Virus record (IMG/VR): IMGVR_UViG_3300045988_167206
Coordinates: 108,686-172,685 of that record
Length of the DNA: 64,000 nt
From: a virus
Strand: one strand, 5' to 3'
A program made the position numbers and the translations under genes. This document shows positions 6,201-28,740 of the stretch, piece after piece. Within the stretch, counting starts at the first letter, position 1. Every line of letters begins with the position of its first letter. The notes under the pieces were generated by a model. That model saw only the letters and a list, made by a program, of their open reading frames with translations. It did not search any database and was not told the origin of the DNA.

Positions 6201-7751
6201 TTATTTGACAGAAAATAAAGAACCGAATTTATTCTTTTTCTGTGTAGATTTAACATTTGCAAGACCAACTTTTGCAGCTGGTTTCTTTGTATTAACTGGT
6301 TCTTCAATTGCAGAAAAGTTAAGTTTTCCAGCTTTTGCGTAAGACAAAAGAATACCATCTAATTTTTCTTTTAACTCATCTACTGTAAATTCCTTATGAT
6401 CGTTCATAAGAGTAGTGAATTCTTCAGTCTCTTTGATTCCTTTATAGTCATCTATTGCAAATAAAGCATCCTTATTTGCATCTTCCTCAGCCTTTTCGTA
6501 TTTCTGCAGTTTCTCAGAAATAGCAGCATAATTTGAACGCATACTCTGAAGTTCAGAATACTCAGAATCCGTTAAAAGTTCACGATGAAGATTATATCTT
6601 TCACCATCAAAAGCAACATTATCACCATCTTTTGTATAGTTCTGTCCGTAGATTTTATCTCCATCCCAATTTTCATATGTAAAATGAGAGTCATATACTG
6701 AATTAATAAAATACCATTCATTATCAGCTTCTTCATAAGAATCAAGAAGAGTATAAAGCGCATAACGAATATCACTATGAGATAACTCAAAAGATTTTAC
6801 AAAATTCTCTGGTTCCTGTTCTGGATTATTTTCTTCGAATGCTTTAGCAAAAGCAGATTCCAGTTCTTCATCTGATAGATCTTTATATTCAAATGTAACA
6901 TCTTCTACGGTTTTACCGTATTTCTGTAAAAGTTCTTCAAATTTATTCACCTGATTCTCCTCCTTTCCTTCAGCATTATTTATATTGAAATTAGAGAGAG
7001 TAGTGTTAATTTTCTCTAATGTTTCAACCAATTTAGAATTAATATCAAAATCTACATACATAGAATTTTTCTTAGAATCAAAATCAGCAAGCTGAACATT
7101 ACTTCCGGCCATACCTGGTCCAACATTTTCATTAAGAAGAGTAAGCCCACCTACATAATAATCATCAAGGTTTAATACTTTATCTTTGGCATTAAATGAC
7201 AACTCGCGAATACTTAATTCAACACTACAATCAACTTTTTCTCTTCGTTCCATAATATCGACAGCATCCTGGCAATATCCTTCCCAAAGATAACCTTGAA
7301 TCATAGCTCTGTTTACACCGGCTTCTTTATCATATTCAATACTATAATCTTTCTTAATTACACCAACTGGACGTTCCTGATAGATAAATGTTTCATTTCC
7401 GTCTTCATCTGTCTCGACAGTAAAATCATGGGATCCGAAATCTTTGTTTCCGTCAGCATTTTCAATAATGTTAGCCAAGATTGGTCTATATGGAATCGAT
7501 TGAGTATTTTCCTCAAAGACATCTTCATTAATATTAGATTTATTTAAATTTACATGATCGTGATAGGCAGCTGCGACAAATGGCTTTAAGCCTTCTGTAT
7601 GCTTATTATCATCAGATTCTCCAAATGTAGCTACGGCAGGCATCTGAACACAAATTTCTGCGTTTGATTCTTTACTGCTAAATTTTGCAAAATTATTTTG
7701 TATACAAAATTCAATTAAATCGTCAATAGTTAAATATTTCTTTTTAATCAT
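6201..7751 (-). CDS. putative scaffolding protein (possibly protease-scaffold fusion)
   Basis: 516 aa, located between the portal and capsid genes. The C-terminal half is acidic and coiled-coil-like (EELESAFAKAFEENNPEQEPE). No catalytic motif was confirmed. Confidence 0.45.
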   Translation of the reverse strand: MIKKKYLTIDDLIEFCIQNNFAKFSSKESNAEICVQMPAVATFGESDDNKHTEGLKPFVAAAYHDHVNLNKSNINEDVFEENTQSIPYRPILANIIENADGNKDFGSHDFTVETDEDGNETFIYQERPVGVIKKDYSIEYDKEAGVNRAMIQGYLWEGYCQDAVDIMERREKVDCSVELSIRELSFNAKDKVLNLDDYYVGGLTLLNENVGPGMAGSNVQLADFDSKKNSMYVDFDINSKLVETLEKINTTLSNFNINNAEGKEENQVNKFEELLQKYGKTVEDVTFEYKDLSDEELESAFAKAFEENNPEQEPENFVKSFELSHSDIRYALYTLLDSYEEADNEWYFINSVYDSHFTYENWDGDKIYGQNYTKDGDNVAFDGERYNLHRELLTDSEYSELQSMRSNYAAISEKLQKYEKAEEDANKDALFAIDDYKGIKETEEFTTLMNDHKEFTVDELKEKLDGILLSYAKAGKLNFSAIEEPVNTKKPAAKVGLANVKSTQKKNKFGSLFSVK

Positions 7752-7997: not shown

Positions 7998-9581
7998 CTA
8001 ATTTTTCTTATCTTGTTTATCTCTACTTGCTTCGCCATCGTCAGTAATACTCGAATCATCTTTTGTAGGTGCACCTCCAGTATCTGAAGAGCCAGACTGA
8101 GTATATGATGTTTGAAGAGGAACTAAAAGTCCTGATAGTCTAAGAACTTGCTCTTCTAAGAAATTAAGTGCAAGAGTATCTTTTTCAGAAAATTGATTTA
8201 AAGTATTATAAGCCAATTTTGTCGGAAGTCCGTTTTGTGCACCAACCAATAATTCTTGTTTGAATTCACCTTTTGTGTAGGCACTCACTTCAAAAAATTT
8301 AACTTTGGCAGGAGTGGATACCCAATATGTTAAAAAGCGATTGACCCATCCCTGGGTCTCCGGCAATAACATTGAAATTGCCATTTCTGTATCAGCTTTT
8401 ACCGCAGCTGAAAATGCTGTGGTTCCAGAAATGCTTGCACTGTTTAATATTTGTGCACCACCAGAACTATTAAATAAAGTTTCTGTGGATTTTGCTATTT
8501 TATTTGTATCGGTAGCTTTGTCGTTATTAAATGAAATTTGATCAAGTTTACCAGGAATAATGGCAGCGGAAGTATATTCAGGTAAAGCCTCGCTGATCAT
8601 CCTATTAAAGTACTCAATAACAATATCTGGTGTAATTTTCCAATCATCAACGTTATCACTGCCAGTAATCGTTTCAAGCTCTAACCAAATCATTTTGTAA
8701 ATGTCTTGCTGATCTGCAATTGCCTGTAAATCATCAAGATCAATAAGATTAATAATTCCAGAAAGTAATCCAGAAAATGGAGGAACAACAGTTTCCCAAT
8801 CTTCAGCTCTGGCTTTTAAGCATACCGCATATTCATCTGGCATAGGTTGCCATTTTCCATTTGTTGTATCGTTTTCATATGCGCGATACATTGATTGGAA
8901 TGGTTCTCCCCATAATTCAAGGACAGTCTGCCTTGATCTAAAATAACTCATATCCATTGAGAAAGCATAATCTCCAGTATTATAAGCTCCGGAAATTTTA
9001 CAATAATCAGGATCAAGTGGGAGAATAAATAATCCTTGATCCTCATCATAAAATGCACATCCATAAAATACATCTTCACGGAAGCATACCATATAAGCTT
9101 TTAACATTTCATATTGAAGATGCATCTTATCAAGAATATTAAGTGTATCCTGGTAAGATGATAACATAGCATTGGCATCGCCACCATTTACTAAATCATA
9201 ATCTGGGATAACTGAACGAGCGTCCAAACAGAACATATTTGCATTATAAGCAATCAATCTGTAATAAGCATGACATCTATAATACAAATACCTAGAAAGA
9301 TTTCGAAGGTTCTTTTCATTTGAACCGATATTTTTAAGATAAGTTCTGAGACTATCCTTACTGAATGCAGTAATAGTAGTAGTGCTTGTCTTAGTAACAT
9401 CTCTAAGTCCTCGTGCACCCTCCATTGCAGCAGCATAATTTTCAATATCTCTATGATTTTTTGAGTACCAATCTTTAATTTCAGCAATTGAACTTTGCTG
9501 AGTAGGTGCCGGGTCCAACTTTTTAGCTGTTGGAACCTTGCTATTAGCACTAATTCGTCTTCTTTTCATTCTTTGTGCCAA
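7998..9581 (-). CDS. putative portal protein
   Basis: 527 aa, immediately downstream of the large terminase, with an acidic C-terminal tail. Ends in TAG. Call rests on position and size. Confidence 0.7.
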   Translation of the reverse strand: MAQRMKRRRISANSKVPTAKKLDPAPTQQSSIAEIKDWYSKNHRDIENYAAAMEGARGLRDVTKTSTTTITAFSKDSLRTYLKNIGSNEKNLRNLSRYLYYRCHAYYRLIAYNANMFCLDARSVIPDYDLVNGGDANAMLSSYQDTLNILDKMHLQYEMLKAYMVCFREDVFYGCAFYDEDQGLFILPLDPDYCKISGAYNTGDYAFSMDMSYFRSRQTVLELWGEPFQSMYRAYENDTTNGKWQPMPDEYAVCLKARAEDWETVVPPFSGLLSGIINLIDLDDLQAIADQQDIYKMIWLELETITGSDNVDDWKITPDIVIEYFNRMISEALPEYTSAAIIPGKLDQISFNNDKATDTNKIAKSTETLFNSSGGAQILNSASISGTTAFSAAVKADTEMAISMLLPETQGWVNRFLTYWVSTPAKVKFFEVSAYTKGEFKQELLVGAQNGLPTKLAYNTLNQFSEKDTLALNFLEEQVLRLSGLLVPLQTSYTQSGSSDTGGAPTKDDSSITDDGEASRDKQDKKN

Positions 9582-9601: not shown

Positions 9602-11656
9602 TTAATCATCAAACATAGATCCAATTCGTCCTTTACGAATAGTAAGAAGCTGCACTAGAGATTTGTCAGCAGTTGGACGTTTCTTATTCGTAATAAATTT
9701 TCTACGCTCACATTGAAGAGCATAAGAGCACATTGCTGTTACATAAGCTCTATCATCATGAAGCTTAGTACGTTTTTCCGGACATAATTCAAAAGAGTCT
9801 TTTCCAGACTCTCGTTTAATACGGATCATATTTACAAGTTCTTCTTTTGTAGCATCAATACTAGCAAGTGATTTTTGTTCTTGCCAGCTTAATTTTTCTA
9901 TTTTACTTTTTACATTTTGTAAATTATTCAAATCCTTCTGAACATTATAATCAATGTCCTCTGGACTCATTTTTTGTTTTTTATATTTAGCTTCAAGCTC
10001 TTTTTTAGCCTTATCATACTTATCTTTGTCGATATCAAAAATAGTAAGATAATCTTTTCCATCATAATCTGCCGTAAACCCAATTTTATCCTGATTCATC
10101 AACTCAATCATTGCTTCATACATTTCTGATTTATATTGAGTAGGAGACATAAGATGAATTTTATTTACTGCATTTGGGAATTTTTTAACATATTCTTCAG
10201 AATATTCTTTATCAATTAAACCACGATGTTTTTTTCCATCTTTACCTTTCCAGTCAGGCATAAGATAATCTGCAATATTTACACCTGCTCCACCAGATCC
10301 AGCATCAATATAAATTCCTAAAATATTGCTATAGGAGTCATCGCCGCCTTGATTATAATCAAGAATAACTTCTTTTAAATAATCAACTTGATCAGGAGTC
10401 TGCATAGGTGTTTTTCGCTTAGTTTCAATATCAATGAGATTAATACAATTTAATAATTTCATTTTGTATTCTGAATCACCATTTTGATCTTTATCTACGT
10501 ATATTTCTGCTACTAAAATAACAGAATTATCTCGACTACGAGCAGGGTCATAAGCTATAACAATTTTTCTCTGTCCGGTATCATTATACAAAATAGGTCT
10601 TCTTATCTCAGAATTCCTTGCAATAACACCTCTTCGAATAATAGCATTTGCTCCAGCGTCAGAAGTGAACTCACAGTAATATTCTCTACGAGCTTTTTCA
10701 GGATTTGAACGCATAGCTGCCTCGACTGTAGATTTCGTAAGAAGCGGAGCCATAACTTGGCCACGAATTGTAGGTCTGAATGCAACTTCACAATCAATAT
10801 GAGCGACAAAATAATCTGGATCGCCCATAAGCTGCCTTTTACTAAAATCTCTATATAACTTATAAAATTCTGTATCTGTAGAAGAAGCAGAAGAGATATA
10901 AAATAATTGGTTTGGAATATTCGATGGAATACATCTTAGACGGTTTATATCAATAGAATTACCATCACGGTCTTTACCAGATTTGAAACTTTTATTAACA
11001 ATTGCGAATGCGCCGTAAGTCTGAAGCATTTCATCAGAAAGCCATCCACATTCATCAAAGATTACATTACCACGCATTCCTCTTTTTTTATCAATATTAC
11101 TATTAAGTGTTTGAGTAAATGCGCCATTATATAAGCTATATGAAAATCCATTAGAAGAGTGGCTAAATCCATCTCCGGCAGCATTCTTTATTTCAATTTC
11201 TGCCTTAAATATATAACCTGTAGAACCAAGCATGGTATCAATATTATCATTCGCAATTCTTTCAAGTGTCGTAAAGGTTTGTTCAGCCTGCGATCCCGAT
11301 CCTGAAGCAATGTATGTCCAATAGTTATTAAATAGCATATCTTTGGCCATTACCATAATATCTATTAGTGTAGATTTTCCAAATCCACGGGTACAAACCA
11401 ATAATACATTTGGACAATTCCAAGATCGTTGAATAATCCATGCCTGAGAATCTAACAATTCAATATTAAAAAAATCATTTATAAAACGTACTGGATTACA
11501 TTGATAATATTTTTGGAGATTTGCAATTTTTATAAAGCCTTCCAGTTTTCTGGACGACATTGGATAAACTCCAGGTTTTACAAAAATCTTATCTCCTTGT
11601 TCGCAATAATCAAGTTTCGGAAGCCGGTTCATCCGTCTCGGATCCATCATCGGCAT
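9602..11656 (-). CDS. terL: terminase large subunit
   Basis: Walker A-like TRGFGKST, Walker B-like VIFDECGW, and a nuclease-domain-like AYDPARSRDNSVILV. 684 aa. Confidence 0.9.
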   Translation of the reverse strand: MPMMDPRRMNRLPKLDYCEQGDKIFVKPGVYPMSSRKLEGFIKIANLQKYYQCNPVRFINDFFNIELLDSQAWIIQRSWNCPNVLLVCTRGFGKSTLIDIMVMAKDMLFNNYWTYIASGSGSQAEQTFTTLERIANDNIDTMLGSTGYIFKAEIEIKNAAGDGFSHSSNGFSYSLYNGAFTQTLNSNIDKKRGMRGNVIFDECGWLSDEMLQTYGAFAIVNKSFKSGKDRDGNSIDINRLRCIPSNIPNQLFYISSASSTDTEFYKLYRDFSKRQLMGDPDYFVAHIDCEVAFRPTIRGQVMAPLLTKSTVEAAMRSNPEKARREYYCEFTSDAGANAIIRRGVIARNSEIRRPILYNDTGQRKIVIAYDPARSRDNSVILVAEIYVDKDQNGDSEYKMKLLNCINLIDIETKRKTPMQTPDQVDYLKEVILDYNQGGDDSYSNILGIYIDAGSGGAGVNIADYLMPDWKGKDGKKHRGLIDKEYSEEYVKKFPNAVNKIHLMSPTQYKSEMYEAMIELMNQDKIGFTADYDGKDYLTIFDIDKDKYDKAKKELEAKYKKQKMSPEDIDYNVQKDLNNLQNVKSKIEKLSWQEQKSLASIDATKEELVNMIRIKRESGKDSFELCPEKRTKLHDDRAYVTAMCSYALQCERRKFITNKKRPTADKSLVQLLTIRKGRIGSMFDD

Positions 11657-12911
11657 CTACCTCATCTTCTAGTGACCCAAAGCAAGAATATAAGTCATTT
11701 AGATCAACTAAATCTGTAGGTTTAATCAATCCTTCTTCTTGCATATAATCTTTGAGATCAATATTTTCACGTAATAAAATACGTGAAATTTCTTTATAAT
11801 TATCTAAATCAGTACGTAAATTTGTGATCATTTGTCGCTGTTCTGCAACCATATCAGACCATTCAGATTCATCTAGACGTAATGCCTTTAATATAGAAGC
11901 ATTACTCATATCCATTACTTGTTGCATGCCTCGACAAGTTCCAATATCAAATCCGTTAACCTCACCTTCGCGAAGATTTAAGTCTTTTATTTTTTTGATT
12001 TTTCCGGTCCATGTATTTTCGCCCTTTTTGGCATTTTTATTATTCTTTAAAGAAATACAGCTTTCAGCTGCCAAATCTTTTATAATAGTAGTTAGATCTT
12101 TTTTACTTTGCTGTAGGGATTTTATTGTAGCAGAATTATTTTTTAATTTATGAATATCAGACATATATGTAGAAATAGCATTGTCAATTTTAGACTGCTG
12201 AAGAAATGCTCGCACAATAGAAATAGCAGAAGCAGTACGCATCATATCATCATTGGCATCTTCACTTGAATCAAGAAGTCCAAGTAATTGAGAATATAAA
12301 AACGGCTGATCAGAAATAGCTTCTTTTTCGAATGGATCATAGCCAAGCAATCGAACTACATCATTTTTATTTTTCGTAAAACTACTATATGTATCCTGAT
12401 TTTCACGACCTTTTACCACATCGTCTGTAGTTTTTTCATCTTCATATACAATTTTTTCTTTGAATAAGTCAGAATCAGAAAATGTGTATCCGATATATTG
12501 TGGCATCGAAACATTTTTTATATACGAAGTCCAAGCATTTGTTTTGGATTTTCCTGTGATAGAATTTTCTGATTCTTGAATACTAGAATTGTAAAGACTT
12601 TCATAGAATGGTTTATTTAGATATCTGAGAGCTTGAATAATAGATTCTTTTGTTGGTTCATGTTCTTCACCATTAACATCAATTCGTAATGCAATTTTTC
12701 TTGCACAATCCATGCAAATTGGAGAACATCCTGATTCACATAACGGATCGGTATTTTTATAAAATTTATCTTTTTTTTTAGGTTTTCCACATAGAAAACA
12801 CCAAGCAGTGTTTTCTTTATAATTATTATTTTCGATTTCTAATTCTTTAATTCGGTTTCTCATTTGGGTCGGAGTCATCTTGACTTGCCCAGTTTCTTTT
12901 GTTGCTGCCAT
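11610..12911 (-). CDS. Cys-rich (zinc-ribbon-like) coiled-coil protein; positional candidate for small terminase/DNA-recognition subunit
   Basis: 433 aa with CFLCGKP...CESGCSPICMDC near the N-terminus. Directly upstream of terL and overlapping it. Confidence 0.6.
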   Translation of the reverse strand: MAATKETGQVKMTPTQMRNRIKELEIENNNYKENTAWCFLCGKPKKKDKFYKNTDPLCESGCSPICMDCARKIALRIDVNGEEHEPTKESIIQALRYLNKPFYESLYNSSIQESENSITGKSKTNAWTSYIKNVSMPQYIGYTFSDSDLFKEKIVYEDEKTTDDVVKGRENQDTYSSFTKNKNDVVRLLGYDPFEKEAISDQPFLYSQLLGLLDSSEDANDDMMRTASAISIVRAFLQQSKIDNAISTYMSDIHKLKNNSATIKSLQQSKKDLTTIIKDLAAESCISLKNNKNAKKGENTWTGKIKKIKDLNLREGEVNGFDIGTCRGMQQVMDMSNASILKALRLDESEWSDMVAEQRQMITNLRTDLDNYKEISRILLRENIDLKDYMQEEGLIKPTDLVDLNDLYSCFGSLEDEVDADDGSETDEPASET

Positions 12912-12935
12912 AACAACTCCTCCTTGTATTCGTAA

Positions 12936-13084: not shown

Positions 13085-14272
13085 TTAATTTAATTTATAT
13101 TTATGTTCGTCAACAATACCATCGGTTTTATCAAATACAAACATTGATGCACCGGCATTAGCTGTTTTTCCAAGAGTCTCACTATATGGATTAAGTCCAA
13201 TTATAGATCGAACACTTATTGCTTCTGAATTTACTCCACCTTCTTCTGAAAATGAAGAGTGCCAATGTCCACTAAATAAATAATCAAATGGTACTTTATA
13301 CATTTTTGATAAAGATTTTAACTTGTCATTTAACTGCTTAGTCTCAAAATGTCCACCAATACAAGTGTGGCAAGCAAGTTGCGAATAAGCTAATCCTGTT
13401 GGATTTTCAATAATAGTGATATTATCATTGCCTTTTAATCTAGCTTTAATTAAGGTAAGCATGGATTTACTCATATCCTCATCCTTAAATGCGTCTTTTG
13501 GCTGCCCAACTAAGCGTAGCTGATTATGATTTGACCTTTTTACCATCTGAAATTTGATAATTACATGTTTACTTAATTCATTGAGCCATTCTGAAATAAA
13601 ATTTGCATACAAAATAGAAGAGTCGATAACTCCATATTTTAGAGTCATAAGCTGTGAATTAGCCCTTAAAATTCCTTCTAAAGCATCACCAAGATCCCAA
13701 ATATGTAAAACCTTAATATCGTCTTTATCAATTTGCTCTACTACTTTATAATATAATTCCCACATTCGTTGCTCAAAAATTTCAGGGCTATATTTATTAA
13801 GTGTATACCCGTAAATATCTTTAATATCAAATTCAACGCCATAATGTGCGTCAGAAATAACTAATAAATAATCTTTACTGGTTACAAAAGGTTTAGTGAT
13901 TATATTTTTAGGTAATGTAACAGGTTTAATTTTTTCAATCGCTTCAACAATTTTTTCCGTAATTAATTCATCACGAGAGTATTCTCGTAACCATTTATTA
14001 AATTCTAATTTTTCACTCTGAAGTTTAATGCGTTCTTTTTTAATAGCTAATTCTTCAGGTAAAGTTGAAATAGAAGAGGATGGGACAATATCCCATCCTG
14101 CATCTACATATTCTAATAATAATTTTGATCCTTTTCGTACAGTATCACGGTGTTCTGTTTCTCCAAGTGCATCTGCTCTAAAATCAGTTATATCTTGCCA
14201 TTCAATTGAAGGATCTATTTGTTTACGCTTAATTAAATCAAGCTGTTGCTGTAAAAATTGATTGTTATCCAT
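13085..14272 (-). CDS. calcineurin-like metallophosphoesterase
   Basis: Ordered motifs SDAHYG (DxH), LGDALEG (GDxxE), SNHNQ (GNH-like), GGH and GHWH. Confidence 0.75.
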   Translation of the reverse strand: MDNNQFLQQQLDLIKRKQIDPSIEWQDITDFRADALGETEHRDTVRKGSKLLLEYVDAGWDIVPSSSISTLPEELAIKKERIKLQSEKLEFNKWLREYSRDELITEKIVEAIEKIKPVTLPKNIITKPFVTSKDYLLVISDAHYGVEFDIKDIYGYTLNKYSPEIFEQRMWELYYKVVEQIDKDDIKVLHIWDLGDALEGILRANSQLMTLKYGVIDSSILYANFISEWLNELSKHVIIKFQMVKRSNHNQLRLVGQPKDAFKDEDMSKSMLTLIKARLKGNDNITIIENPTGLAYSQLACHTCIGGHFETKQLNDKLKSLSKMYKVPFDYLFSGHWHSSFSEEGGVNSEAISVRSIIGLNPYSETLGKTANAGASMFVFDKTDGIVDEHKYKLN

Positions 14273-15187: not shown

Positions 15188-15218
15188 TTTATTTTCTCCA
15201 TGTTTTCCTAAATATATT

Positions 15219-16943: not shown

Positions 16944-17026
16944 TGGGAAGTGATGGAGTTGAACCACCCGAGTCTTTCGACAACAGATTTACAGTCTGCC
17001 CCGCTACCCCTACGGTATAACTTCCC
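16944..17026 (-). tRNA. tRNA-Tyr (GUA)
   Basis: Acceptor GGGAAGT/ACTTCCC, anticodon loop CUGUAAA, long variable arm, T loop TTCAACT. Confidence 0.85.
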
Positions 17027-17174
17027 TTGTTTTCTTTACTTTTTCATCTTGGCTGAGGATTTGTGCCCTCCAACCAAAGATATAGTCTGTGTACTTTAGA
17101 CTGCCATTTACTTTACACTCTAAATGGTCAAAACGTAACCGAGGCTGCTGGCGCGACCAGTGCATGTCAGTTAA

Positions 17175-17246
17175 CACACCCTCAAGGACTCGAACCCTGT
17201 TCTACGGTTTTGGAGACCGTCATAATACCACATATACCAAAGGTGC
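17175..17246 (-). tRNA. tRNA-Trp (CCA)
   Basis: Anticodon arm ACGGT-CUCCAAA-ACCGT, T arm CAGGG-TTCGAGT-CCTTG, acceptor GCACCTT/AGGGTGT (G1-U72 wobble). Confidence 0.8.
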
Positions 17247-17255
17247 AAAAAAATA

Positions 17256-17337
17256 ACGCCGTGCACACGATTCGAACGTGCAAGTCCTTTCAGACCAACA
17301 GTTTTCAAGACTGCTCCCTCACCACCCGGACACACGG
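17256..17337 (-). tRNA. tRNA-Ser (UGA)
   Basis: Acceptor GCCGTGT/GCACGGC, anticodon loop CUUGAAA, long variable arm, T loop TTCGAAT. Confidence 0.85.
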
Positions 17338-17347
17338 CATAATAAAG

Positions 17348-17420
17348 CTGAAATAGAGACTTGAACTCTAAACCTGCTGATTACAAATCAGCTGCTCTGC
17401 CAATTGAGCTATTCCAGCAA
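17348..17420 (-). tRNA. tRNA-Thr (UGU)
   Basis: GCTGGAA-TA-GCTC-AATTGGCA-GAGC; anticodon arm GCTGA-UUUGUAA-TCAGC; T arm TAGAG-TTCAAGT-CTCTA. Confidence 0.9.
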
Positions 17421-17484
17421 AATCCGTCTTTCCGGATTGTCAGACCGAGATACCAGTCATTTACTAATTAAATTTTAAACTTGC

Positions 17485-17513
17485 TTGACAAAAATATCCA
17501 ATAATGGTATTAT
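17485..17513 (+). promoter_or_regulatory. sigma-70-like promoter (TTGACA-17 nt-TATTAT)
   Basis: Consensus -35 TTGACA at 17485-17490, 17-nt spacer, TATTAT at 17508-17513. Faces the opposite way to the surrounding tRNA genes. Confidence 0.65.
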
Positions 17514-17675
17514 CCCATTCGTTAGAGGTCGAGAATCCCAAAAGGATTCATAGGAAGATAGTGCAAACTGGACTCCGTGGTAAACCAAGCAATATACAAC
17601 GGTTATTATACGGCCGCCTTTATGGGCAGATTTTAGCTCATGTGCCTCCAATCGGTAGGAGAGGAGGTTTTTACT

Positions 17676-17756
17676 ATGAATGATTATATTACATATATTA
17701 TTCTAGGACTTGATGCACTCGTATGGGTGCTGAAGGTTATTAAAACATTTTGTTAA
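17676..17756 (+). CDS. 26-aa hydrophobic peptide MNDYITYIILGLDALVWVLKVIKTFC (type I toxin-like)
   Basis: ATG preceded by GGAGAGGAGG. An upstream CCTCC (17645-17649) can pair with the SD. Single predicted TM helix with a basic tail. Own promoter and terminator. Confidence 0.55.
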   Translation: MNDYITYIILGLDALVWVLKVIKTFC

Positions 17757-17816
17757 TTTCTTGTTGTTGAGCTTGGCGGGATAATAATTCCATTATTGGA
17801 TTAATCATAGTAGTAG

Positions 17817-17852
17817 AAGCTGCATCCTGCAGCTTCTTTCTTTGTGTTTTTT
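17817..17852 (+). terminator. rho-independent terminator
   Basis: GAAGCTGCA-tcc-TGCAGCTTC stem followed by TTTCTTTGTGTTTTTT. Confidence 0.8.
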
Positions 17853-17947
17853 GATATGCTCCCAATCTAAAAGACCTGAGGTCTCCCAGGAAGGATTTTC
17901 ACCTTCGAGTTCCCAGCATGGTGGGCGGTAACTGTTCATATCTTTAA

Positions 17948-18032
17948 CGCAAAGCAGAGTATTCGAAACTCAATCCAATAAAGGATCGCATGACTTAGCA
18001 GGTCAGCTCCGTGCCTCACGGATTTACTTTGC
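17948..18032 (-). tRNA. tRNA-Ser (GCU)
   Basis: Acceptor GCAAAGT/GCTTTGC, anticodon loop CUGCUAA, long variable arm (ATCC-TTTATT-GGAT), T loop TTCGAAT. Confidence 0.8.
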
Positions 18033-18100
18033 AATTTTAAAGGAGAGGGAGGATAAAACCTCCCCAGAAAAAAGAAAGAGGTAGTAACTATAACAAATCA

Positions 18101-18129
18101 ACAAAAAAATATTGAGTGTAAAACACTCA
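18101..18129 (-). terminator. rho-independent terminator inside the tRNA array
   Basis: On the minus strand, TGAGTGT-TTT-ACACTCA then ATATTTTTTTG, immediately after the 3' end of tRNA-Leu(UAA). Confidence 0.65.
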
Positions 18130-18215
18130 GTGCTATCTGTGGGACTCGAACCCACACTTCGTGTTTCAGAAACAGGATTTTAAGTCCTGTGCGCCTGCCA
18201 GTTACGCCAAGATAG
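18130..18215 (-). tRNA. tRNA-Leu (UAA)
   Basis: Acceptor GCTATCT/AGATAGC, anticodon arm CAGGA-CUUAAAA-TCCTG, long variable arm, T arm GTGGG-TTCGAGT-CCCAC, A73. Confidence 0.9.
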
Positions 18216-18226
18216 CATTTATTTAT

Positions 18227-18299
18227 AAGCACTATATGAGAGTCGAACTCATATCATCTGATTGGAAGTCAGATATCATGTTCCGTTAAACCAATAGTG
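18227..18299 (-). tRNA. tRNA-Gly (UCC)
   Basis: Acceptor GCACTAT/ATAGTGC, anticodon arm TCTGA-CUUCCAA-TCAGA, T arm ATGAG-TTCGACT-CTCAT. Confidence 0.85.
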
Positions 18300-18454
18300 C
18301 ATCGGCAGGGAAGCGGAATTCTGCCTTCTAATTCTCTTATTACCTACTAAATTATAAAGAGCCATGGTTTTATAAAATTTCGGATCCTCTGTAGAAAGAG
18401 GATAACATTCTTTATAATTACTCATTCTGAGATTATACTTAGTACTTCCCCAAA

Positions 18455-18525
18455 TAGCGGAGGCTGGATTTGAACCAACGTCTCTAGAGCATGAATCTAG
18501 CAAGGAACCGCTCCTCTACTCCGCG
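18455..18525 (-). tRNA. tRNA with CAU anticodon (Met or Ile2-type), C1xU72 mismatch
   Basis: Anticodon arm CTAGA-UUCAUGC-TCTAG, T arm GTTGG-TTCAAAT-CCAGC, acceptor CGCGGAG/CTCCGCT with position 1:72 unpaired. 71 nt. Confidence 0.7.
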
Positions 18526-18704
18526 TTATTCGTATATTTATGGTAGAACTATATCTATGTCGTCTTACAACATACAGCATGTTCACTTATTGCCTACTAA
18601 AGATTTCGTACTTAAACCCGATCAGGAATATAATAAAATCACTCGGTTAACACATGCAATTATATTCCGTGTACCTATCTACACCAAACTTTCAGGCACC
18701 ATAG

Positions 18705-18778
18705 TTGGAATGACGGGATTTGAACCCACAACGTCTTGGTCCCAAACCAAGCGGACTGCCAAGTTGTCCTACATTCCA
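18705..18778 (-). tRNA. tRNA-Pro (UGG)
   Basis: Acceptor TGGAATG/CATTCCA (U1-A72), anticodon arm CTTGG-UUUGGGA-CCAAG, T loop TTCAAAT. Confidence 0.85.
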
Positions 18779-18786
18779 AAATTAAG

Positions 18787-18859
18787 CTCTCCCAGCAGGA
18801 CTCGAACCTGCGACACAACGGTTAACGGCCGTTTGCTCTACCAACTGAGCTATAAGAGA
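18787..18859 (-). tRNA. tRNA-Asn (GUU) with C at position 33
   Basis: TCTCTTA-TA-GCTC-AGTTGGTA-GAGC; anticodon arm AACGG-CCGUUAA-CCGTT; T arm GCAGG-TTCGAGT-CCTGC. Confidence 0.8.
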
Positions 18860-18898: not shown

Positions 18899-19174
18899 TT
18901 ACGCATTTACTGCTTCTTTGATCTGTTTTCCAAATTTACATCTTACAGCATTTTTAGCATCGACCATTACAGTTTCACCTGTTCTTGGATTACGAGCTGT
19001 ACGAGCATCCTTATGTACTGTAGAAAGTGTAACGCCATCCATCAGTTTAACCTCATCGCCTTTTACAAGTGTATCAAATGTAACTGCCTGGATAGCTTCC
19101 ATAACGGACTTAATATCCTTCTGTGTAAATCCTGTCTTTGTTGCAACTTCTTTAATCATTTCTACTTTGTTCAT
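18899..19174 (-). CDS. hup: HU/IHF-family DNA-binding protein
   Basis: 91 aa. MNKVEMIKEVATKTGFTQKD...ARTARNPRTGETVMVDAKNAVRCKFGKQIKEAVN matches the HU fold signature (R-N-P-x-T-G arm). Confidence 0.9.
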   Translation of the reverse strand: MNKVEMIKEVATKTGFTQKDIKSVMEAIQAVTFDTLVKGDEVKLMDGVTLSTVHKDARTARNPRTGETVMVDAKNAVRCKFGKQIKEAVNA

Positions 19175-19218: not shown

Positions 19219-19247
19219 ATAATAAAAGCGGTGCATAAAACACCGCT
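19219..19247 (-). terminator. rho-independent terminator
   Basis: On the minus strand, AGCGGTG-ttttatg-CACCGCT followed by TTTTATTAT, between the 19265 stop and the HU gene. Confidence 0.6.
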
Positions 19248-19603: not shown

Positions 19604-19877
19604 TGTAGATCTCCTTGTTTCTCAAATAATTATTTGTACACCCGGATGTACCAAGCCCATCCGGTAAGGCATTACCATTATCAAATTCGAATCCCATATT
19701 TCAACACGCATCGGCAATAGCGCAGAAGGTTTTACTTTTTTTCAAACAGCTGTCTGACCACATGTATCCATATTCTACGTATAAACATGGACCTGAAGGA
19801 TCAACGAAGCAAAAAGTTATTCCCCTCATATACCACACGCTATTCGAATTGCGAAAAACACTGATTTTATAAAGGTT

Positions 19878-22745
19878 TTAGAGCAACTTTTTTTTTGATA
19901 TTCTGCAGTTTTTCCGGAAATTTTGCAAAAATGCATTTTTGTCCATTCTATAAAGAAGATTTAAAAGATTGCGAGTGTATCTTGAATAATCTTTCTTTTT
20001 TCCTCTTGTACTTGTATTCAAAGCAATTTCAATTAAACGGCTCATTGTTTTCGGATTAGAAATTTTCATTTTTCGTAAATCAGTTAAAATTTCTTCAAAT
20101 CTTTCTGTATAAGCCATGATATCATCGTCAGACATATCATCTTTACTCAATTCATCTAATTCTTTGGCATAATTAATAATTTTTTCCATTTGTCTGTGAT
20201 TAGCCTTTCCAGGTACATCAACGATAAATTCTTTTATAGGAATAGCATCTTTTTGTGATGCCGGTGCAATCTCATTTAATATTCTTTCAAGAAAATTCAT
20301 AGGACATATATAATAGGAAGAAACTCTGTTATAAAGTTTGTTTTTCTGTTCCATAACAATCTCTCTATCAATTTCTTTACCATTTTTGGTATAAGCAATT
20401 TTTCGTGTAAACTTCATAAATTCCGGGAAATCTCGTTTTATTTTTTTCACATTTCCATCTTTATCAGTAATCTCTTCAACCTGGCACATACATGGCAACC
20501 CCTTTATTCGTTTAATTTCTTCTATAGCGTCAACTTCATACTCTCGTTTACATCCATCAATAATAACCTGGGCTAATACAGAAAGAATCACAAAATTATC
20601 GTATAATTCTTTGGATGGTTCGGTCCAATAGTATGTCATAGCAAGCTGTGCTAAGTTACTAGATTCTCCGATACCAATACGTGATTTTGCAAATTTGTTA
20701 TCCATACGAGCATATTCCTTCATTGTATTCTTATAGGTAAGACCACTTTCTTTAAGTTTGTTCACTATAGTAGGATATTTTTCGTATGCGGCTTTCGCAC
20801 TTTTTACCATTACTGGATTATTGGTCACAAAGAAAAAATCGGAATCAAAATCACATCCATTGGCACGATCCTGAATATCTGTTTCGATACAGTTCACAAA
20901 CATAATGTTGTTACTTATCTTAAAATAACGAGATAATTCAGGACTATAATGATTATGTAAATAGCAAATGTTATTTGGACTATTATGTGGATTTCTGATA
21001 CCACATAGATATTCGCCATCATCAAAACGAGTAGTATAACACTGAATTGTTCCAGGCTCCGGGCGAAGAGTGGGATCTGACTCCGGATCTTCACCAACTG
21101 CTTTTAATAAAAGTGCATATGGATTACCAAAAATCGTAAGATTGTCGCCGTCTATAGTAATTTTACCGTTACGAAGTCTATTTACATAGTTACGAAGAAT
21201 CTGCCTTTTCTCGTATCTAAACCAAGTACTATCACCAAATTCATAGTCCTGGTCATATAGATCTGCTAACATCTCATAATGGTTTACTATAGTAGCATTT
21301 TTTCTCAGGAACCGCTCGAAGATATCATTTTCCAGCTTCATATCTTCAACATAATCAACACTGGTTCTCGCCAATTCACGTACTTCAGACATTCCACAGC
21401 ATAATAATTCACTATCTTCTTCATAAGATGGGAGAGTATTGATCATCTGATAGCTCATCTGCTGAACGCTGCCTAATTTACTTGGATGATCAGTTTTTAC
21501 CACGCCCCAGTAGCTTCCGTCTGCATCAACACGATCACACCAATATTTATAGGCCGCTTCAGGTGTTTTTCCCATCAAATCCATGAATTTCTTCCATTTA
21601 ATGGCATTATCAGTAGTGATCATCTTAATATCTTTGAGTTTGTGTGATACTCCGAACATATCTTTAACTTCATATGTTTCGTAGTCTAAATCATGTTCCT
21701 CGCACCAGTCCTTAAAAAATAGCTGCAATTTACTTTTGATTGCACATGCCTTAAAGAAATGTTGCCTGAGCAACGCCATACCATTGATCCATTTAGGTAA
21801 AATAGAGATATCTGCAAGAGCAAGTCCATCATGTAATGTATTTTTTACCTCTGTCTCTTCATCAGAAACAACACATTTTTTCTTTGTTACCGGCACCATT
21901 TTATATCTCCGGCTGAATTTAGGAGTAACACCATCTTTTAAAAATTTCTTCTCTCGAATAGCTTTTTGTTTTGCTGCTTCAGTAGCTTCTTCATCAAGAA
22001 CCTTTTCGTATGCTATATATTCTTCAGCTTTTACTATTTTAGCCATAGTCTTAAAAAAGCTATCAGTGTCCTTTAGAATCAAAATATCTCTAACAGGGCA
22101 ATAAAACTTTCCTACTATGGTAGAAGTAGTAAGAGGAGCATAAGCAGACATCTCTACAATTTTTGCATTATCAATAGGCATTTTCTTTCCGAGTCCCATT
22201 GTAAGCCAATCATAAGACTTCTTATATAATTTGCTATTGATAAACATTACCTGGCCGATCTTAGCTTTAGAGGAGTTACGATACAGCATTTTATAATTAA
22301 TAGTCTGGCTTTTTTCACCATCTTTTTTAGTGTATTTCGATTTATATTCTATGTTAACTCCTTGATCATAGAACAACTCACGTATTTCATCCTTAGATAA
22401 TTTCCAATAATTATCTTTATTTTTTTCTACATTATCAAATATCTGCTGGATTTTTTTCTTTGATTCCGCTGTAAGAGAAGCATCATGTTTAAAACCTTTA
22501 AATTGTTTACGTAAATGATCAAGTTCTTCTTCGTAACTTCTGCTACCAAAATCAAAATCCAAACAGATAATATCTCTAGTACTCGTATCATTCCAAACAT
22601 TAAGGCCATTTTCTCTAATCCAATCATAAAACAGACTATTGCTAAACATTGCTTCAGTCGAATCATAATGATCACGAACTCCCTGATTACAACCAAATAG
22701 AGTACCGGCTTTAATATTCCGTATTTTTAAACCAAATTCAGACAA
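19878..22745 (-). CDS. putative single-subunit two-barrel RNA polymerase (YonO / cellular-RdRP-like)
   Basis: 955 aa. The segment GIRNPHNSPNNICYL...IMFVNCIETDIQDRANGCDFDSDFFFVTNNP resembles the RdRP/QDE-1/YonO catalytic barrel signature (R-x-P-x-x-H-P...D-x-D-G/S-D). Confidence 0.6.
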   Translation of the reverse strand: MSEFGLKIRNIKAGTLFGCNQGVRDHYDSTEAMFSNSLFYDWIRENGLNVWNDTSTRDIICLDFDFGSRSYEEELDHLRKQFKGFKHDASLTAESKKKIQQIFDNVEKNKDNYWKLSKDEIRELFYDQGVNIEYKSKYTKKDGEKSQTINYKMLYRNSSKAKIGQVMFINSKLYKKSYDWLTMGLGKKMPIDNAKIVEMSAYAPLTTSTIVGKFYCPVRDILILKDTDSFFKTMAKIVKAEEYIAYEKVLDEEATEAAKQKAIREKKFLKDGVTPKFSRRYKMVPVTKKKCVVSDEETEVKNTLHDGLALADISILPKWINGMALLRQHFFKACAIKSKLQLFFKDWCEEHDLDYETYEVKDMFGVSHKLKDIKMITTDNAIKWKKFMDLMGKTPEAAYKYWCDRVDADGSYWGVVKTDHPSKLGSVQQMSYQMINTLPSYEEDSELLCCGMSEVRELARTSVDYVEDMKLENDIFERFLRKNATIVNHYEMLADLYDQDYEFGDSTWFRYEKRQILRNYVNRLRNGKITIDGDNLTIFGNPYALLLKAVGEDPESDPTLRPEPGTIQCYTTRFDDGEYLCGIRNPHNSPNNICYLHNHYSPELSRYFKISNNIMFVNCIETDIQDRANGCDFDSDFFFVTNNPVMVKSAKAAYEKYPTIVNKLKESGLTYKNTMKEYARMDNKFAKSRIGIGESSNLAQLAMTYYWTEPSKELYDNFVILSVLAQVIIDGCKREYEVDAIEEIKRIKGLPCMCQVEEITDKDGNVKKIKRDFPEFMKFTRKIAYTKNGKEIDREIVMEQKNKLYNRVSSYYICPMNFLERILNEIAPASQKDAIPIKEFIVDVPGKANHRQMEKIINYAKELDELSKDDMSDDDIMAYTERFEEILTDLRKMKISNPKTMSRLIEIALNTSTRGKKKDYSRYTRNLLNLLYRMDKNAFLQNFRKNCRISKKKLL

Positions 22746-24487
22746 TAATGATCAGACCTCCTTGCTAATGTTTCATTTGATCTAGCAAGATCGTTAGAGG
22801 ATATTATTTCGTATGTAGGAAGATGGTGACTGTCTCGTGGTAATATAATAGGATTGGACACAGAATTTAAATCAAGAGTTTCCGCTCTATGACCTATTGA
22901 ATTTGCTTCACTTGGATAAGCATATGCATGACTACTTATATGGGCAGCAGAAGTAATAGTTCCATTTTCAGATGTAGGTAATGGTCTAATTGAATCAATA
23001 TCAAGGTGATGCTCTCCAAGAATGAAATTCATACTCCCAATAGATAAATTTCCACTAAGATATTCAATTTTATTATTTGATTTTTCTTTTTGTAGTGTTC
23101 TCAATTTTTTCAATTTTACATTTAACTCATTATTGGCCTTATTTAACGCCTGGTTAATAGATTTCCGACTATAATAAGTCTTTTTATGCATAAGTTGGGT
23201 TTTCAACCTAGTAATTTCAGTTTTTAAATATTTTATTTCTTTTTTTAATTGATCATCTTCATGCAACTTATTATATCTTCCAATATAATACTCATTAAGC
23301 GCGGGAGAAAATAATTTTGTCAAATCATTCCAAGAAGCAAACTCGATTTCTTCAATACTAACCGATTTTGCATAATCAATAATATTCTTAACAAATTCTA
23401 AAGTAAGAAGAAAAGTTTCATATTTTAATGTACTTTTAAACATTCTGAATTCAATGGTATCCGGATGCTGTAAATTCAGCGCAGCCTTCTTACCTTCATC
23501 TGAATATTTTCCAAATAATGTGATAGCGGTATCATCTTTTCCTCGATCACCAACAAATCTACTATAATCTGTATGCCGTCTTCCAATAACACAAATTTCA
23601 TCATTAAATTTCTCAATGATATATAGAATCTTTGAAATTACAAGCTCCTGTTGTAATTTAGTTTTACCTAGGTAAGATCTGTTTGCATGAATATGTAATC
23701 CGGCATTACTACAGTCATGTCCTTTATAACCTTGTTCATCAAGATATTTAAACATTTCTTTATAATTCATTTTGGTCTGATGGAATTTAAGACTGCATGG
23801 CATTGTATCAAGTTCGATTTGTACAGTCCCATCATGTGTACTATAAATATATTTCTCTTCATCAGAATCTGAAGTATTCATGATCTGAATACATTTTTTT
23901 ACAACATCCTGCTTAATAATTTGATCTATTTCTGGAAGATTTCCTGCAACCTCAATTTCTGCACCAAGTAGAAGAGTAGTAGATGGATCTTCATCTTCAC
24001 AGAAATATCTTAAATATTCAGGTTTATAGTCATATGAATGAATATAATATTTTATTCCTGTATTAGAAACTCTGCGTTGAGTCTCTAATCTTCTTATATT
24101 GTTATCTCGATTAGTAGAAAGTCTACCGCTATACCAATTAAATATATCGTTTGATGAATTAAACGGTATTAATCCATGTGAACCAAGATCATCTATATAT
24201 TCGTCACTATAATACATACAACAGGGATCGAAATAAAACCTGTTGCTATAATTATCTGTAAATTCAATTAATGTATCTTTCACTAATTTACAAAAATCCA
24301 CATAATTAAAATTATAAGTATACCATCTATGATTATCTCGTATATGTTCACACATTATTCTGAGTGTTGATTGGCTATTAATATTTATTTGTACATCAAT
24401 ATCAGTCACCAAATTTCCATCTATAGTAAGTGGATCCTGCAGACTTATAATATGTCCATCAAGTTCCATATCTGGTAGTAATCTCAT
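22727..24487 (-). CDS. amidoligase-like (glutamine-synthetase-fold COOH-NH2 ligase) protein with C-terminal coiled coil
   Basis: LLLGAEIEVAG, STHDGTVQIELDTMPC, NAGLHIHANR and DTIEFRMFKSTL occur in the order expected for the Amidoligase_2 family. C-terminal K/E-rich helix. Confidence 0.65.
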   Translation of the reverse strand: MRLLPDMELDGHIISLQDPLTIDGNLVTDIDVQININSQSTLRIMCEHIRDNHRWYTYNFNYVDFCKLVKDTLIEFTDNYSNRFYFDPCCMYYSDEYIDDLGSHGLIPFNSSNDIFNWYSGRLSTNRDNNIRRLETQRRVSNTGIKYYIHSYDYKPEYLRYFCEDEDPSTTLLLGAEIEVAGNLPEIDQIIKQDVVKKCIQIMNTSDSDEEKYIYSTHDGTVQIELDTMPCSLKFHQTKMNYKEMFKYLDEQGYKGHDCSNAGLHIHANRSYLGKTKLQQELVISKILYIIEKFNDEICVIGRRHTDYSRFVGDRGKDDTAITLFGKYSDEGKKAALNLQHPDTIEFRMFKSTLKYETFLLTLEFVKNIIDYAKSVSIEEIEFASWNDLTKLFSPALNEYYIGRYNKLHEDDQLKKEIKYLKTEITRLKTQLMHKKTYYSRKSINQALNKANNELNVKLKKLRTLQKEKSNNKIEYLSGNLSIGSMNFILGEHHLDIDSIRPLPTSENGTITSAAHISSHAYAYPSEANSIGHRAETLDLNSVSNPIILPRDSHHLPTYEIISSNDLARSNETLARRSDHYCLNLV

Positions 24488-25202: not shown

Positions 25203-26099
25203 CTAAACAAATACTAATTCGTTAATATAATCTCTGCCTTTGCCTTTAAATACCGGAATATTATTATCAATGGTCCAATAGGATCGTTGTGTTTCACATC
25301 TAATTTCTCCAATTCTTTTGTTATCATCTTTAACAGGTTTCCATCCTTCATGATTTTCATAAGTTTTAATACAACAGAATCCGCGTTGTTTGCCAATTTT
25401 AAAATCATTATCAAAATCAATATTTTTCTGCTCATGTAACATTTCTTTAATGGCAGCAGTACTTTTATTCTGTAATTCCTTTTGTGTAAAATTTGCCTGG
25501 CCAACCATCTGAATAGAATTACGAATACAATCTTGCTGCCGCCAGAAAAAATAATTTGCGATCTCATCTTTAGAGAGATTAAAACACCTTGAATCAAAAC
25601 CTCTGTATTTAAATTCAAGCGCATTCCATAAACGTTGCATATATTCAATATCGGATTTTTCTTTATCTGTTAAATCTTTATAAGTTCCACCCATATCATA
25701 ATCCGGAATGTTTCTATATCCATATCTTTCAATATTTTCCTTAAACATTTCTTCAAAAAATGTTGTAGCAAGAGCAGCAGAAGTGCTGACTATTTTCTGA
25801 ATTCTATTATCAAACCAAGGCTGAGTATCAAAATTTTTATAATCAATAAGAAGTAATGAAATTTCATCAGACTGAGTATATGCAAGAACACAATTCTGCA
25901 CATTCTGACACATATATAATGCAGTCTGTTGCATAGTATCAATTAAAATATCATCAAATGGTTTCCTGAATCCTCTTGTAAAACTATGGAAGCTGCGGCC
26001 ATCAAGTCTAATAATTACCGGTAATCTTCGGATTAACTTTTGATCCGTAATCTTTTCGTAGTCTTTCATTCTAATATCTAAATCTGTATATGCTGGCAT
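25203..26099 (-). CDS. Thg1-like protein (tRNA-His guanylyltransferase family 3'-5' nucleotidyltransferase)
   Basis: VIIRLDGRSFHSFTRGFRKPFD, LAYTQSDEISLLL, FDSRCF...YFFWRQQDCIRNSI and NIDFDNDFKIGKQRG align motif-for-motif with eukaryotic Thg1 (VVVRLDGRNFHRF..KPND, YGQSDEYSFVF, FDGRVV..YLSWRQADCHINNL). Confidence 0.9.
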   Translation of the reverse strand: MPAYTDLDIRMKDYEKITDQKLIRRLPVIIRLDGRSFHSFTRGFRKPFDDILIDTMQQTALYMCQNVQNCVLAYTQSDEISLLLIDYKNFDTQPWFDNRIQKIVSTSAALATTFFEEMFKENIERYGYRNIPDYDMGGTYKDLTDKEKSDIEYMQRLWNALEFKYRGFDSRCFNLSKDEIANYFFWRQQDCIRNSIQMVGQANFTQKELQNKSTAAIKEMLHEQKNIDFDNDFKIGKQRGFCCIKTYENHEGWKPVKDDNKRIGEIRCETQRSYWTIDNNIPVFKGKGRDYINELVFV

Positions 26100-27302: not shown

Positions 27303-27320
27303 TCATTAAATTTTACATTA
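27303..27320 (-). promoter_or_regulatory. copy of conserved 15-mer RTAAAATTTAAAAAT (minus orientation)
   Basis: On the minus strand reads ATTAATGTAAAATTTAATGATATATTAAGGAG. About 25 nt upstream of ATG 27282. Confidence 0.6.
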
Positions 27321-28339: not shown

Positions 28340-28385
28340 AATTATTGTCTCCTTTAAAATTAATTTGTTTTACACTGATGATAAT

Positions 28386-28398
28386 TAAATTTTACATT
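28386..28398 (-). promoter_or_regulatory. copy of conserved 15-mer (minus orientation)
   Basis: On the minus strand reads AATGTAAAATTTAATTATC. 47 nt upstream of ATG 28339. Confidence 0.55.
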
Positions 28399-28494
28399 AT
28401 TAAATCTTAAAAATAAAAACATCAGTATTTATGAGGTTTTCAAGGTGCTGCACACGGAAGATTTGTACAAATGTAAAAACAATTGATATACTTT

Positions 28495-28528
28495 CAAATT
28501 TTACATTATAACCGGTACACGATGAGTA
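28495..28528 (+). promoter_or_regulatory. bipartite box TTACAT-N16-TGAGTATAT, overlapping an inverted 15-mer copy
   Basis: TTACAT at 28501-28506 and TGAGTA at 28523-28528. Same architecture as the boxes after hairpins U1-U4. 28495-28507 is also the reverse complement of AATGTAAAATTTG. Confidence 0.4.
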
Positions 28529-28570
28529 TATCACCAGCGAAAGGTAGTGTCAAGAGCTTTGAACGAAAAT

Positions 28571-28585
28571 AATGTAAAATTTAAA
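28571..28585 (+). promoter_or_regulatory. copy of conserved 15-mer
   Basis: AATGTAAAATTTAAAC, inside the non-coding control region. Confidence 0.5.
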
Positions 28586-28727: not shown

Positions 28728-28740
28728 ATGTAAAATTTGA
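28728..28740 (+). promoter_or_regulatory. copy of conserved 15-mer (3' half diverged)
   Basis: AATGTAAAATTTGA. Confidence 0.4.

Follow-up and report, generated by a model that had tools for sequence, protein, structure and literature searches.

A YonO-like two-barrel RNA polymerase from a large unannotated clade of Lachnospiraceae phages

The polymerase gene

The DNA studied here, hereafter the window, is a stretch of 64,000 nucleotides (nt) from a virus record (IMG/VR IMGVR_UViG_3300045988_167206, positions 108,686 to 172,685). On its minus strand lies an open reading frame (ORF) of 955 amino acids (aa), whose product belongs to the YonO-like branch of the two-barrel polymerases and to a large, unannotated clade of Lachnospiraceae phages. 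An earlier note, made from the sequence alone, had proposed a phage-encoded polymerase of the YonO/RNA-dependent RNA polymerase type, and four independent lines bear the proposal out, namely profile homology, predicted fold, eight invariant residues and synteny with SPbeta, the phage that carries yonO.

The 955-aa frame is uninterrupted both in the ORF list and in a direct translation of the window, and both motifs quoted in the earlier note were read from it, with a gap of 18 residues between GIRNPHNSPNNICYL and IMFVNCIETDIQDRANGCDFDSDFFFVTNNP. This conserved motif arrangement is far beyond chance. Translation starts at a TTG codon (22745), and a ribosome-binding site, AAGGAGG, lies 11 nt upstream. 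The start is considered sound, because residue 1 is aligned and invariant in 63 homologs. It overlaps the 3' end of an upstream 586-aa ORF by 19 nt, and this upstream ORF is kept in close relatives. Coordinates of all features are given in Table 1.

Catalytic residues

Eight residues common to all two-barrel polymerases were defined by Ruprich-Robert and Thuriaux, namely an Asp, an Arg/Lys and a Lys in the beta-type barrel, and R-x-P together with D-x-D-x-D in the beta-prime-type barrel (PMC2919709). In the window protein these are D306, R327, K332, R584, P586, D632, D634 and D636, each of which is invariant in 63/63 members of the family alignment (28-90% identical to the window protein). The first three have their counterparts in D709, R738 and K743 of QDE-1 and in D249, R266 and K271 of YonO. 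The spacings from R to K, from R to P and from P to D are 5, 2 and 46 residues here and 5, 2 and 43 in QDE-1 (PMC2919709). According to a previous study, the Asp triad of YonO is catalytic and an Asp-to-Asn mutant is inactive (PMC5467207).

In nine viral contigs carrying relatives, the polymerase frame is split, with a frame change, exactly at the catalytic loop (window residues 620-632). The interruptions are 280-890 nt long, and Rfam calls a group I intron at this split in two of the nine contigs; a second interruption of about 250 nt was found near residues 714-723 in three loci, while the window's own gene has none. Insertions of this kind are typical of conserved catalytic sites in phage genes, and the position of these introns at the catalytic-loop codons was counted as a sign of selection on the active site.

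Homology to YonO and family size

The YonO sequence was taken from the SPbeta record, and a YonO-family profile was built from 20 members. The 63-member profile of the window family aligned with YonO alone at an hhalign probability of 98.8% (expectation value, E, 6.7e-17), and with the YonO-family profile at 99.6% (E 1e-23) over 526 columns, so that the homology to YonO expected in the earlier note is detectable at the profile level. Both barrels and all key residues stand in register with the YonO family: D306-G307, R327 and K332 align with the invariant D249-G250, R266 and K271, and R584-x-P586-H587 and D632/D634/D636 align with the invariant R492-x-P494-H495 and D535/D537/D539.

Conventional searches with the polymerase returned little. 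Pfam gave nothing at E up to 10 except a chance hit to Replitron_C (E 0.084), NCBIfam and PADLOC gave no match, and neither the single protein nor the profile matched a PDB sequence. The sole match in PHROGs was phrog_8308, a family of "unknown function". As a control, YonO itself was run against the same library copies and also had no Pfam or NCBIfam match, and the Pfam and NCBIfam negatives are uninformative for this reason. The same holds for PF05183 (RdRP), where the earlier note had looked for similarity: the polymerase and eight other members had no match, and neither did YonO in this copy, whereas a precomputed PF05183 match is present in some YonO-family members. The failure of PF05183 reflects the reach of the model.

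The family comprises 3066 proteins in a collection clustered at 90% and 1177 clusters at 50% identity. Its common conserved core spans residues 290-950, and the N-terminal region is variable. Relatives are named either "hypothetical" or, in GenBank and UniProt records, "RNA-dependent RNA polymerase" (for example in PMBT24 and in BFVD entries); no experiment underlies the latter name, which stems from fold or PF05183 similarity and probably misstates the function.

Predicted structure

A confident AlphaFold2 model was built from the 63-sequence alignment, with a mean predicted local distance difference test score (pLDDT) of 91.1 and a predicted template-modelling score (pTM) of 0.86. Searched with Foldseek against the PDB, all 25 matches at E <=0.001 (E 1.7e-12 to 1.4e-5) were two-barrel polymerases, namely RDR2, QDE-1 and the Thermus-phage proteins P74 gp62 and P32 gp64, while cellular multi-subunit RNA polymerases remained non-significant (E 0.14 or worse). 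In BFVD the top match (E 3.5e-50, template-modelling (TM) score 0.70) was a phage protein from a metagenome, which bears the name "RNA dependent RNA polymerase", and further matches included A7KVB1 of Bacillus phage 0305phi8-36 and A7XX94 of Thermus phage P23-45. Bacillus phage 0305phi8-36 is a published YonO-like case (PMC2919709, PMC7824862). A crAss-like "putative RNA polymerase" in BFVD matched marginally (E 0.014).

In the model, the loop that runs directly into strand 637-641 holds the Asp triad, and R-x-P is flanked by strands 579-583 and 594-598; a beta-prime-type barrel is expected to be arranged in this way. Around the beta-type segment, strands are predicted at 308-312, 323-328 and 331-338. 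Thus the structural prediction of the earlier note, in which the triad would map to a barrel loop of a polymerase of this kind, agrees with the model.

Comparison with known polymerases

YonO (Forrest et al. 2017, PMC5467207) is the closest known system. Both are single chains (840-955 aa) with a homologous core of about 530 residues, both barrels and the same eight catalytic residues; both genes stand upstream of genes for HU-like, YonJ, YonG, terminase, portal and YonD homologs, and both occur in large phages of Firmicutes. They differ in the metal loop, which is DNDGD in YonO and DxDSD in the window clade, and in the N-terminal region, which is different and longer in the window protein (about 290 aa, variable in the family). 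The YonO family also has a C-terminal four-Cys cluster that the window protein lacks, the hosts are Bacillus for YonO and Lachnospiraceae for the window clade, and a structured RNA, described below, follows the window-clade gene and was not detected in SPbeta.

Among solved structures, QDE-1 and RDR2 (PDB 2J7N, 7W82, 7ROZ) give the best full-length matches (E 1.7e-12 to 2.2e-7, TM about 0.45), with the same barrel order and a comparable distance from R-x-P to the Asp triad. On the other side, they are RNA-dependent cellular enzymes with a DYDGD loop, the identity is only 8-11%, and there is no match at the sequence level. The proteins of the Thermus phage P23-45 gp64 type (8F5M, P74 gp62; 8F72, P32 gp64) are likewise phage single-chain two-barrel polymerases (E 1.5e-6 to 1.4e-5), but they have about 590 aa, reach a query-normalised TM of 0.24-0.27 and belong to another phage group. 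The crAss-like phi14:2 gp66 type, also a phage two-barrel polymerase related to RNA-silencing enzymes, is represented by the marginal BFVD match only. The multi-subunit cellular RNA polymerase shares the eight active-site residues and the two-barrel principle (PMC2919709), but differs in its poor fold match and in size, the window chain being about 1/4 of its core.

Genome context and synteny with SPbeta

In SPbeta, yonO is followed by yonN (HU-like), yonK, yonJ, yonI, yonH, yonG, yonF (terminase), yonE (portal) and yonD, all on one strand except yonI. The window presents the polymerase, a 112-aa protein, an HU-like protein, a tRNA cluster, beta-CASP and ClpP-like proteins, YonJ, YonG and YonF homologs, the portal protein and a YonD homolog, in this order. 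Neighbours of the gene in close relatives carry the Pfam families YonJ_CC and YonG_N. The synteny is evidence separate from the comparison of the proteins.

The window is AT-rich (about 32% G+C), and its coding strand switches near 28 kb. The minus-strand half encodes terminase, portal, exonuclease-like protein, ClpP-like protease, beta-CASP nuclease, a Thg1-like enzyme and ten tRNA genes, and the plus-strand half holds small ORFs, mostly without assigned function. A nucleotide search against deposited phage genomes gave no match except to tRNA genes. Relatives of the polymerase were found on metagenomic and IMG/VR contigs of 165-170 kb and in Lachnospiraceae chromosomes (one complete, of 7.3 Mb). 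A lysogen, Ruminococcus sp. AM36-2AA, carries a 76% identical protein (L003). Based on the gene content and the setting of these relatives, the window comes from an uncultivated large phage or prophage of gut Firmicutes.

Several further genes were observed. Nine tRNA genes form a cluster, which together with a separate tRNA-Leu gene lies between the HU-like and the structural genes, and SPbeta has an untranslated 1.7-kb stretch at the position equivalent to the cluster. A gene for a Thg1-like tRNA-His guanylyltransferase lies upstream of the polymerase. The beta-CASP/metallo-beta-lactamase nuclease (RNase J-like) and the ClpP-like protease, located between the tRNA cluster and the YonJ homolog, are kept in relatives and absent from the SPbeta module. 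On the plus strand, a 421-aa reverse transcriptase matches RT_UG27 over its full length (PADLOC E 5e-209), a defence-associated class, and the phage therefore carries a DRT-type reverse transcriptase.

Table 1. Features of the window and of compared loci (positions in the window unless a locus label precedes them)
Feature	Position	Strand	Basis or remark
YonO-like single-subunit two-barrel RNA polymerase, 955 aa	19878..22745	-	intact ORF, homology, predicted fold
Ribosome-binding site AAGGAGG and TTG start codon	22745..22765	-	sequence
586-aa protein, weak amidoligase-like Pfam match (E 1e-4)	22727-24487	-
Beta-type barrel active-site segment D306-G307 ... R327 ... K332	21750..21830	-	alignment and model strands
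R584-x-P586-H587 segment of beta-prime-type barrel, GIRNPHNSPNNICYL (residues 582-596)	20958..21002	-	direct translation
IMFVNCIETDIQDRANGCDFDSDFFFVTNNP (residues 614-644)	20814-20906	-	direct translation
DFDSD, metal-binding Asp triad D632/D634/D636 (residues 632-636)	20838..20852	-	direct translation
Structured non-coding RNA element, helices P0, P1, H2	19636..19836	-	conservation and covariation
Core covariance-model matches in the RNA element	19691-19772; 19686-19729	-
Small Cys-rich protein, 112 aa	19265..19603	-	conserved in close relatives
Terminator-like hairpin after the 112-aa gene	19227-19247	-
HU-like DNA-binding protein, YonN homolog	18899..19174	-	NCBIfam HU/IHF; tblastn 34% identity, E 1e-11
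Nine-tRNA cluster	16944-18859	-
Beta-CASP/metallo-beta-lactamase nuclease (RNase J-like)	15219-16664	-
ClpP-like protease	14585-15232	-
YonJ homolog, exonuclease-like	13085..14272	-	tblastn 30% over 387 aa, E 7.5e-46; phrog_284
tRNA-Leu	12935-13011	-
YonG homolog	11610..12911	-	tblastn E 1e-8
Terminase large subunit, YonF homolog	9602..11656	-	phrog_2; tblastn E 3.5e-8
Portal protein, at SPbeta YonE position	7998..9581	-	phrog_2739, E 8e-85; yonE annotated as portal
YonD homolog	6201..7751	-	tblastn E 3e-9
Thg1-like tRNA-His guanylyltransferase	25203-26099	-
Best sigma-70-type promoter match, TTGACA-17-TATACT with TG	28525..28553	-	consensus match, candidate
Repeat copies, minus strand	27305-27317, 28384-28396, 28493-28505	-
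Repeat copies, plus strand	28573-28585, 28729-28741, 28993-29005, 36135-36147	+
Repeat copies, plus strand (continued)	36719-36731, 38794-38806, 49636-49648, 61980-61992	+
Reverse transcriptase, 421 aa	55748-57013	+	RT_UG27
Interrupted polymerase loci in relatives	L087:5193-5491	-	catalytic loop
Interrupted polymerase loci in relatives	L106:4038-4336	+	catalytic loop
Interrupted polymerase loci in relatives	L091, L094, L101, L102, L108, L110, L113		catalytic loop
SPbeta look-alike segments	L002 21218-21234, 20665-20749, 20386-20441	-	by eye

Proposed function in late transcription

Given the fold, homology to YonO, a full set of catalytic residues and the setting in a phage genome, we consider it likely, at a probability of roughly 80%, that the ORF encodes a single-chain two-barrel RNA polymerase of about 110 kDa, which represents a sister lineage of YonO and likely transcribes late genes. 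Previous work showed that YonO is a strictly DNA-dependent, processive RNA polymerase and is required for 37 late genes of SPbeta, which are transcribed from one promoter (PMC5467207). The biological role of YonO is extended to the window protein mainly because of its positional equivalence with yonO.

By analogy to YonO, the window polymerase would be DNA-dependent. Its gene would be expressed within an early/middle operon, which the host enzyme would read starting in the divergent region near 28.5 kb. The phage enzyme would then transcribe the collinear late module that follows its gene (HU, tRNA cluster, YonJ and YonG homologs, terminase, portal and structural genes), whereby late expression would become independent of the host polymerase. 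The best sigma-70-type candidate (28553-28525) is directed into the minus-strand operon whose last gene is that of the polymerase. Together with the hairpin at 19247-19227, it agrees with a cascade in which the host polymerase leads to the phage polymerase, and the phage polymerase to the late module.

Several observations weigh against this interpretation. Pairwise BLASTP between the polymerase and YonO gave no match, and the identity to YonO in the profile alignment is just about 16-18%. The canonical Gly of DxDGD is replaced by Ser635; this position is Ser in 54/63, Thr in 4/63 and Gly in 2/63 family members, while the corresponding Gly538 is invariant across the YonO family. Ser for Gly is a trait of the clade, not a defect, and the three metal-binding Asp residues are kept. 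The invariant four-Cys cluster of the YonO family (C799/C802/C816/C819) has no counterpart in the polymerase, where C814 and C947 are the only cysteines after residue 754. The eight catalytic residues would be expected to cluster at the barrel interface, the enzymatic activity and role of the protein and its clade are borrowed from YonO, and no promoter used by the polymerase was identified in the window. Finally, many homologs with 50-57% identity reside in Lachnospiraceae chromosomes where no phage genes were recognised among the neighbours within 10 kb, suggesting that the role may differ across the family. As regards the earlier note's description of a divergent lineage, the clade-wide Ser635 and the lack of pairwise BLAST similarity to YonO both agree with it.

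The chromosomal homologs include L004-L019 and others; in L007, the complete genome of Lachnospiraceae bacterium CE91-St56, the neighbours include a GmrSD-like protein, kinases, an acetyltransferase and a 1517-aa protein of unknown function. Four loci (L029, L032, L050 and L057) are filed under Bacteroidales, Thermoplasmata, Absconditabacterales or Parabacteroides bins, and look like phage contigs wrongly binned with metagenome-assembled genomes, because the Lachnospiraceae signal is otherwise uniform. The 112-aa Cys-rich protein encoded downstream of the polymerase was considered as a detached form of the YonO C-terminal Cys cluster and rejected (probability 0.4%).

Repeated motif in the early region

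The earlier note had also suggested that the polymerase would account for a conserved 15-mer found upstream of many genes. The core of this repeat, (A/T)GTAAAATTTAA(A/T), has 34 matches in the window against 17.4 expected by chance. Its copies are co-oriented with genes, 15-45 nt before start codons and without a conserved -35 box, and three of them precede the operon encoding the polymerase. These features would suit a virion-packaged polymerase that is injected for early genes, like phi14:2 gp66 or that of N4, and that recognises the motif, as a pre-made enzyme could also serve its own operon; the crAss-like polymerase is also weakly present among the fold matches.

We nevertheless regard an injected early polymerase as improbable. 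Good copies of the repeat, among them the three before the polymerase operon, occur only within 27-62 kb, in the early region, which extends to either side of the divergent point. The structural genes below 16.6 kb have no copy with up to 1 mismatch upstream of them, and below 23 kb copies with <=1 mismatch are confined to 1256(-) and 1498(+), inside ORFs, and 17478(-), in the tRNA cluster. The exact repeat is absent from relatives whose polymerase is 72-79% identical, and one of these (L083) has a different repeat, TAATGTTTTAATCAA, instead. In addition, TAAAAT, which forms the core, makes a good -10 element for the host as well. Multi-domain injected phage polymerases, including the very large proteins of which crAss-like polymerases are domains, are far larger than 955 aa.

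Accordingly, the evidence leans against the repeat as the promoter of the polymerase, and this part of the earlier note is not supported. Closely related polymerases of the T7 group, for example those of T7 and T3, differ in promoter specificity, and a link between repeat and polymerase may for this reason still exist. As published, YonO is not virion-borne and uses one late promoter (PMC5467207), and by analogy to SPbeta one promoter would be enough for a late enzyme.

Structured RNA downstream of the polymerase gene

Among relatives, the stretch of 270 nt that separates the polymerase stop codon from the following gene is better conserved than the flanking coding DNA. This block contains a structured RNA element of about 130-200 nt, which carries an insertion of about 95 nt in the window's clade. 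In the window it comprises helices P0, P1 and H2, with the conserved H2 loop UAUUGCCGAU, followed by AAAUAUGG and a 3' hairpin with the loop GGCUUGGUA; the consensus reads UAUUNCCRAU for the first loop, AUAAAUAYGG for the following tract and GGCUUURUA for the 3' hairpin loop.

Two covariance models were used, R1 with one hairpin and the following tract, and R2 with three helices. R1 matches only 100-310 nt downstream of the polymerase gene and on the same strand, down to loci with 36% identical polymerase. R2 found 24 copies beside the polymerase gene, and in L074 the copy is 4.5 kb downstream of it. When IMG/VR was searched by DNA pattern alone, all 28 contigs found had the polymerase directly upstream. 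Lineages differ in the gene that comes next after the element, so its link is to the polymerase gene.

Diverse copies, when folded as single sequences, give the same three-helix core. In the R2 alignment, which was fitted to the model, 95.2% of 311 cells pair versus 68% in shuffled alignments, compensatory changes occur in 13/14 pairs, and the covariation score is 0.581, which 0/500 shuffles reached, versus 0.189. Register-shift controls of covariation gave <=0.10. Folding of the window copy as a single sequence was not significant (z -0.97), and RNAalifold on a MAFFT alignment of distant copies gave no structure, owing to misalignment. No family of Rfam 15 matches the element. Two other explanations of the block were rejected: a small ORF (a 45-codon Cys-rich frame), given 1- and 2-nt indels in relatives, no conserved ATG and the compensatory stem changes, and a sigma-70 promoter, whose spacing is unfit and whose would-be -10 box is overlapped by helix P0.

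SPbeta has no convincing R1 or R2 match; the best reaches 14.7 bits and overlaps the yonN ribosome-binding site. By eye, look-alikes were seen there, ATAAGGGAGACAGAAAG just after yonO, and TATGAGGG followed by a hairpin and ATAAATGG, the latter within the interval bracketed by the published P_YonO primer-extension primers. These serve as a lead only, the homology being unsupported by the covariance models.

It is possible, although we think it rather unlikely, that the RNA element is a dedicated partner of the polymerase. It might act as a leader that marks or licenses the late transcript, through loading or through processive antitermination like that of put RNA, or as a polymerase-binding regulator. 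The put RNA mediates processive antitermination for the host polymerase. If such a role were true, the RNA partner would be the first handle on target choice by YonO-type polymerases.

A structured RNA encoded beside the gene could also be taken to favour an enzyme that acts on phage or host RNA and does not transcribe DNA, the more so as the closest solved folds are the eukaryotic RNA-dependent RDR2 and QDE-1 and relatives bear the name "RNA-dependent RNA polymerase". We judge an RNA-dependent enzyme very improbable, since that name comes from PF05183 similarity, the phage has a double-stranded DNA genome, the gene occupies the yonO position at the head of the late module, and YonO, the sole characterised phage member, strongly prefers DNA templates (PMC5467207). 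Hardly credible at all is the reading that the two barrels serve a different activity (priming, or DNA synthesis as in archaeal PolD) or that the protein is an inert structural relic: the Ser-for-Gly exchange at the metal loop and the presence of DNA polymerases in the superfamily (PMC7824862) would allow it, but the eight catalytic residues are invariant in 63 diverse members, neither PolD nor a primase is among the PDB fold matches, and the homology is specifically to YonO.

Significance

Of the single-chain two-barrel polymerases akin to the cellular multi-subunit enzyme, YonO is the only one from a bacterial virus that has been characterised. With the window protein, a far larger sister clade stands beside it, carried by phages and prophages of Lachnospiraceae from the human gut (1177 clusters at 50% and more than 3000 at 90%); it is unmatched by Pfam and NCBIfam and unannotated. 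For structure-function studies this clade supplies natural variants, including Ser or Gly at the metal loop and the lack of the Cys cluster, and the specificity or regulatory element that has been missing gains a concrete candidate in the tightly linked structured RNA. For annotation, the gain is an account of how these phages of 165-170 kb can run late transcription without the host polymerase.

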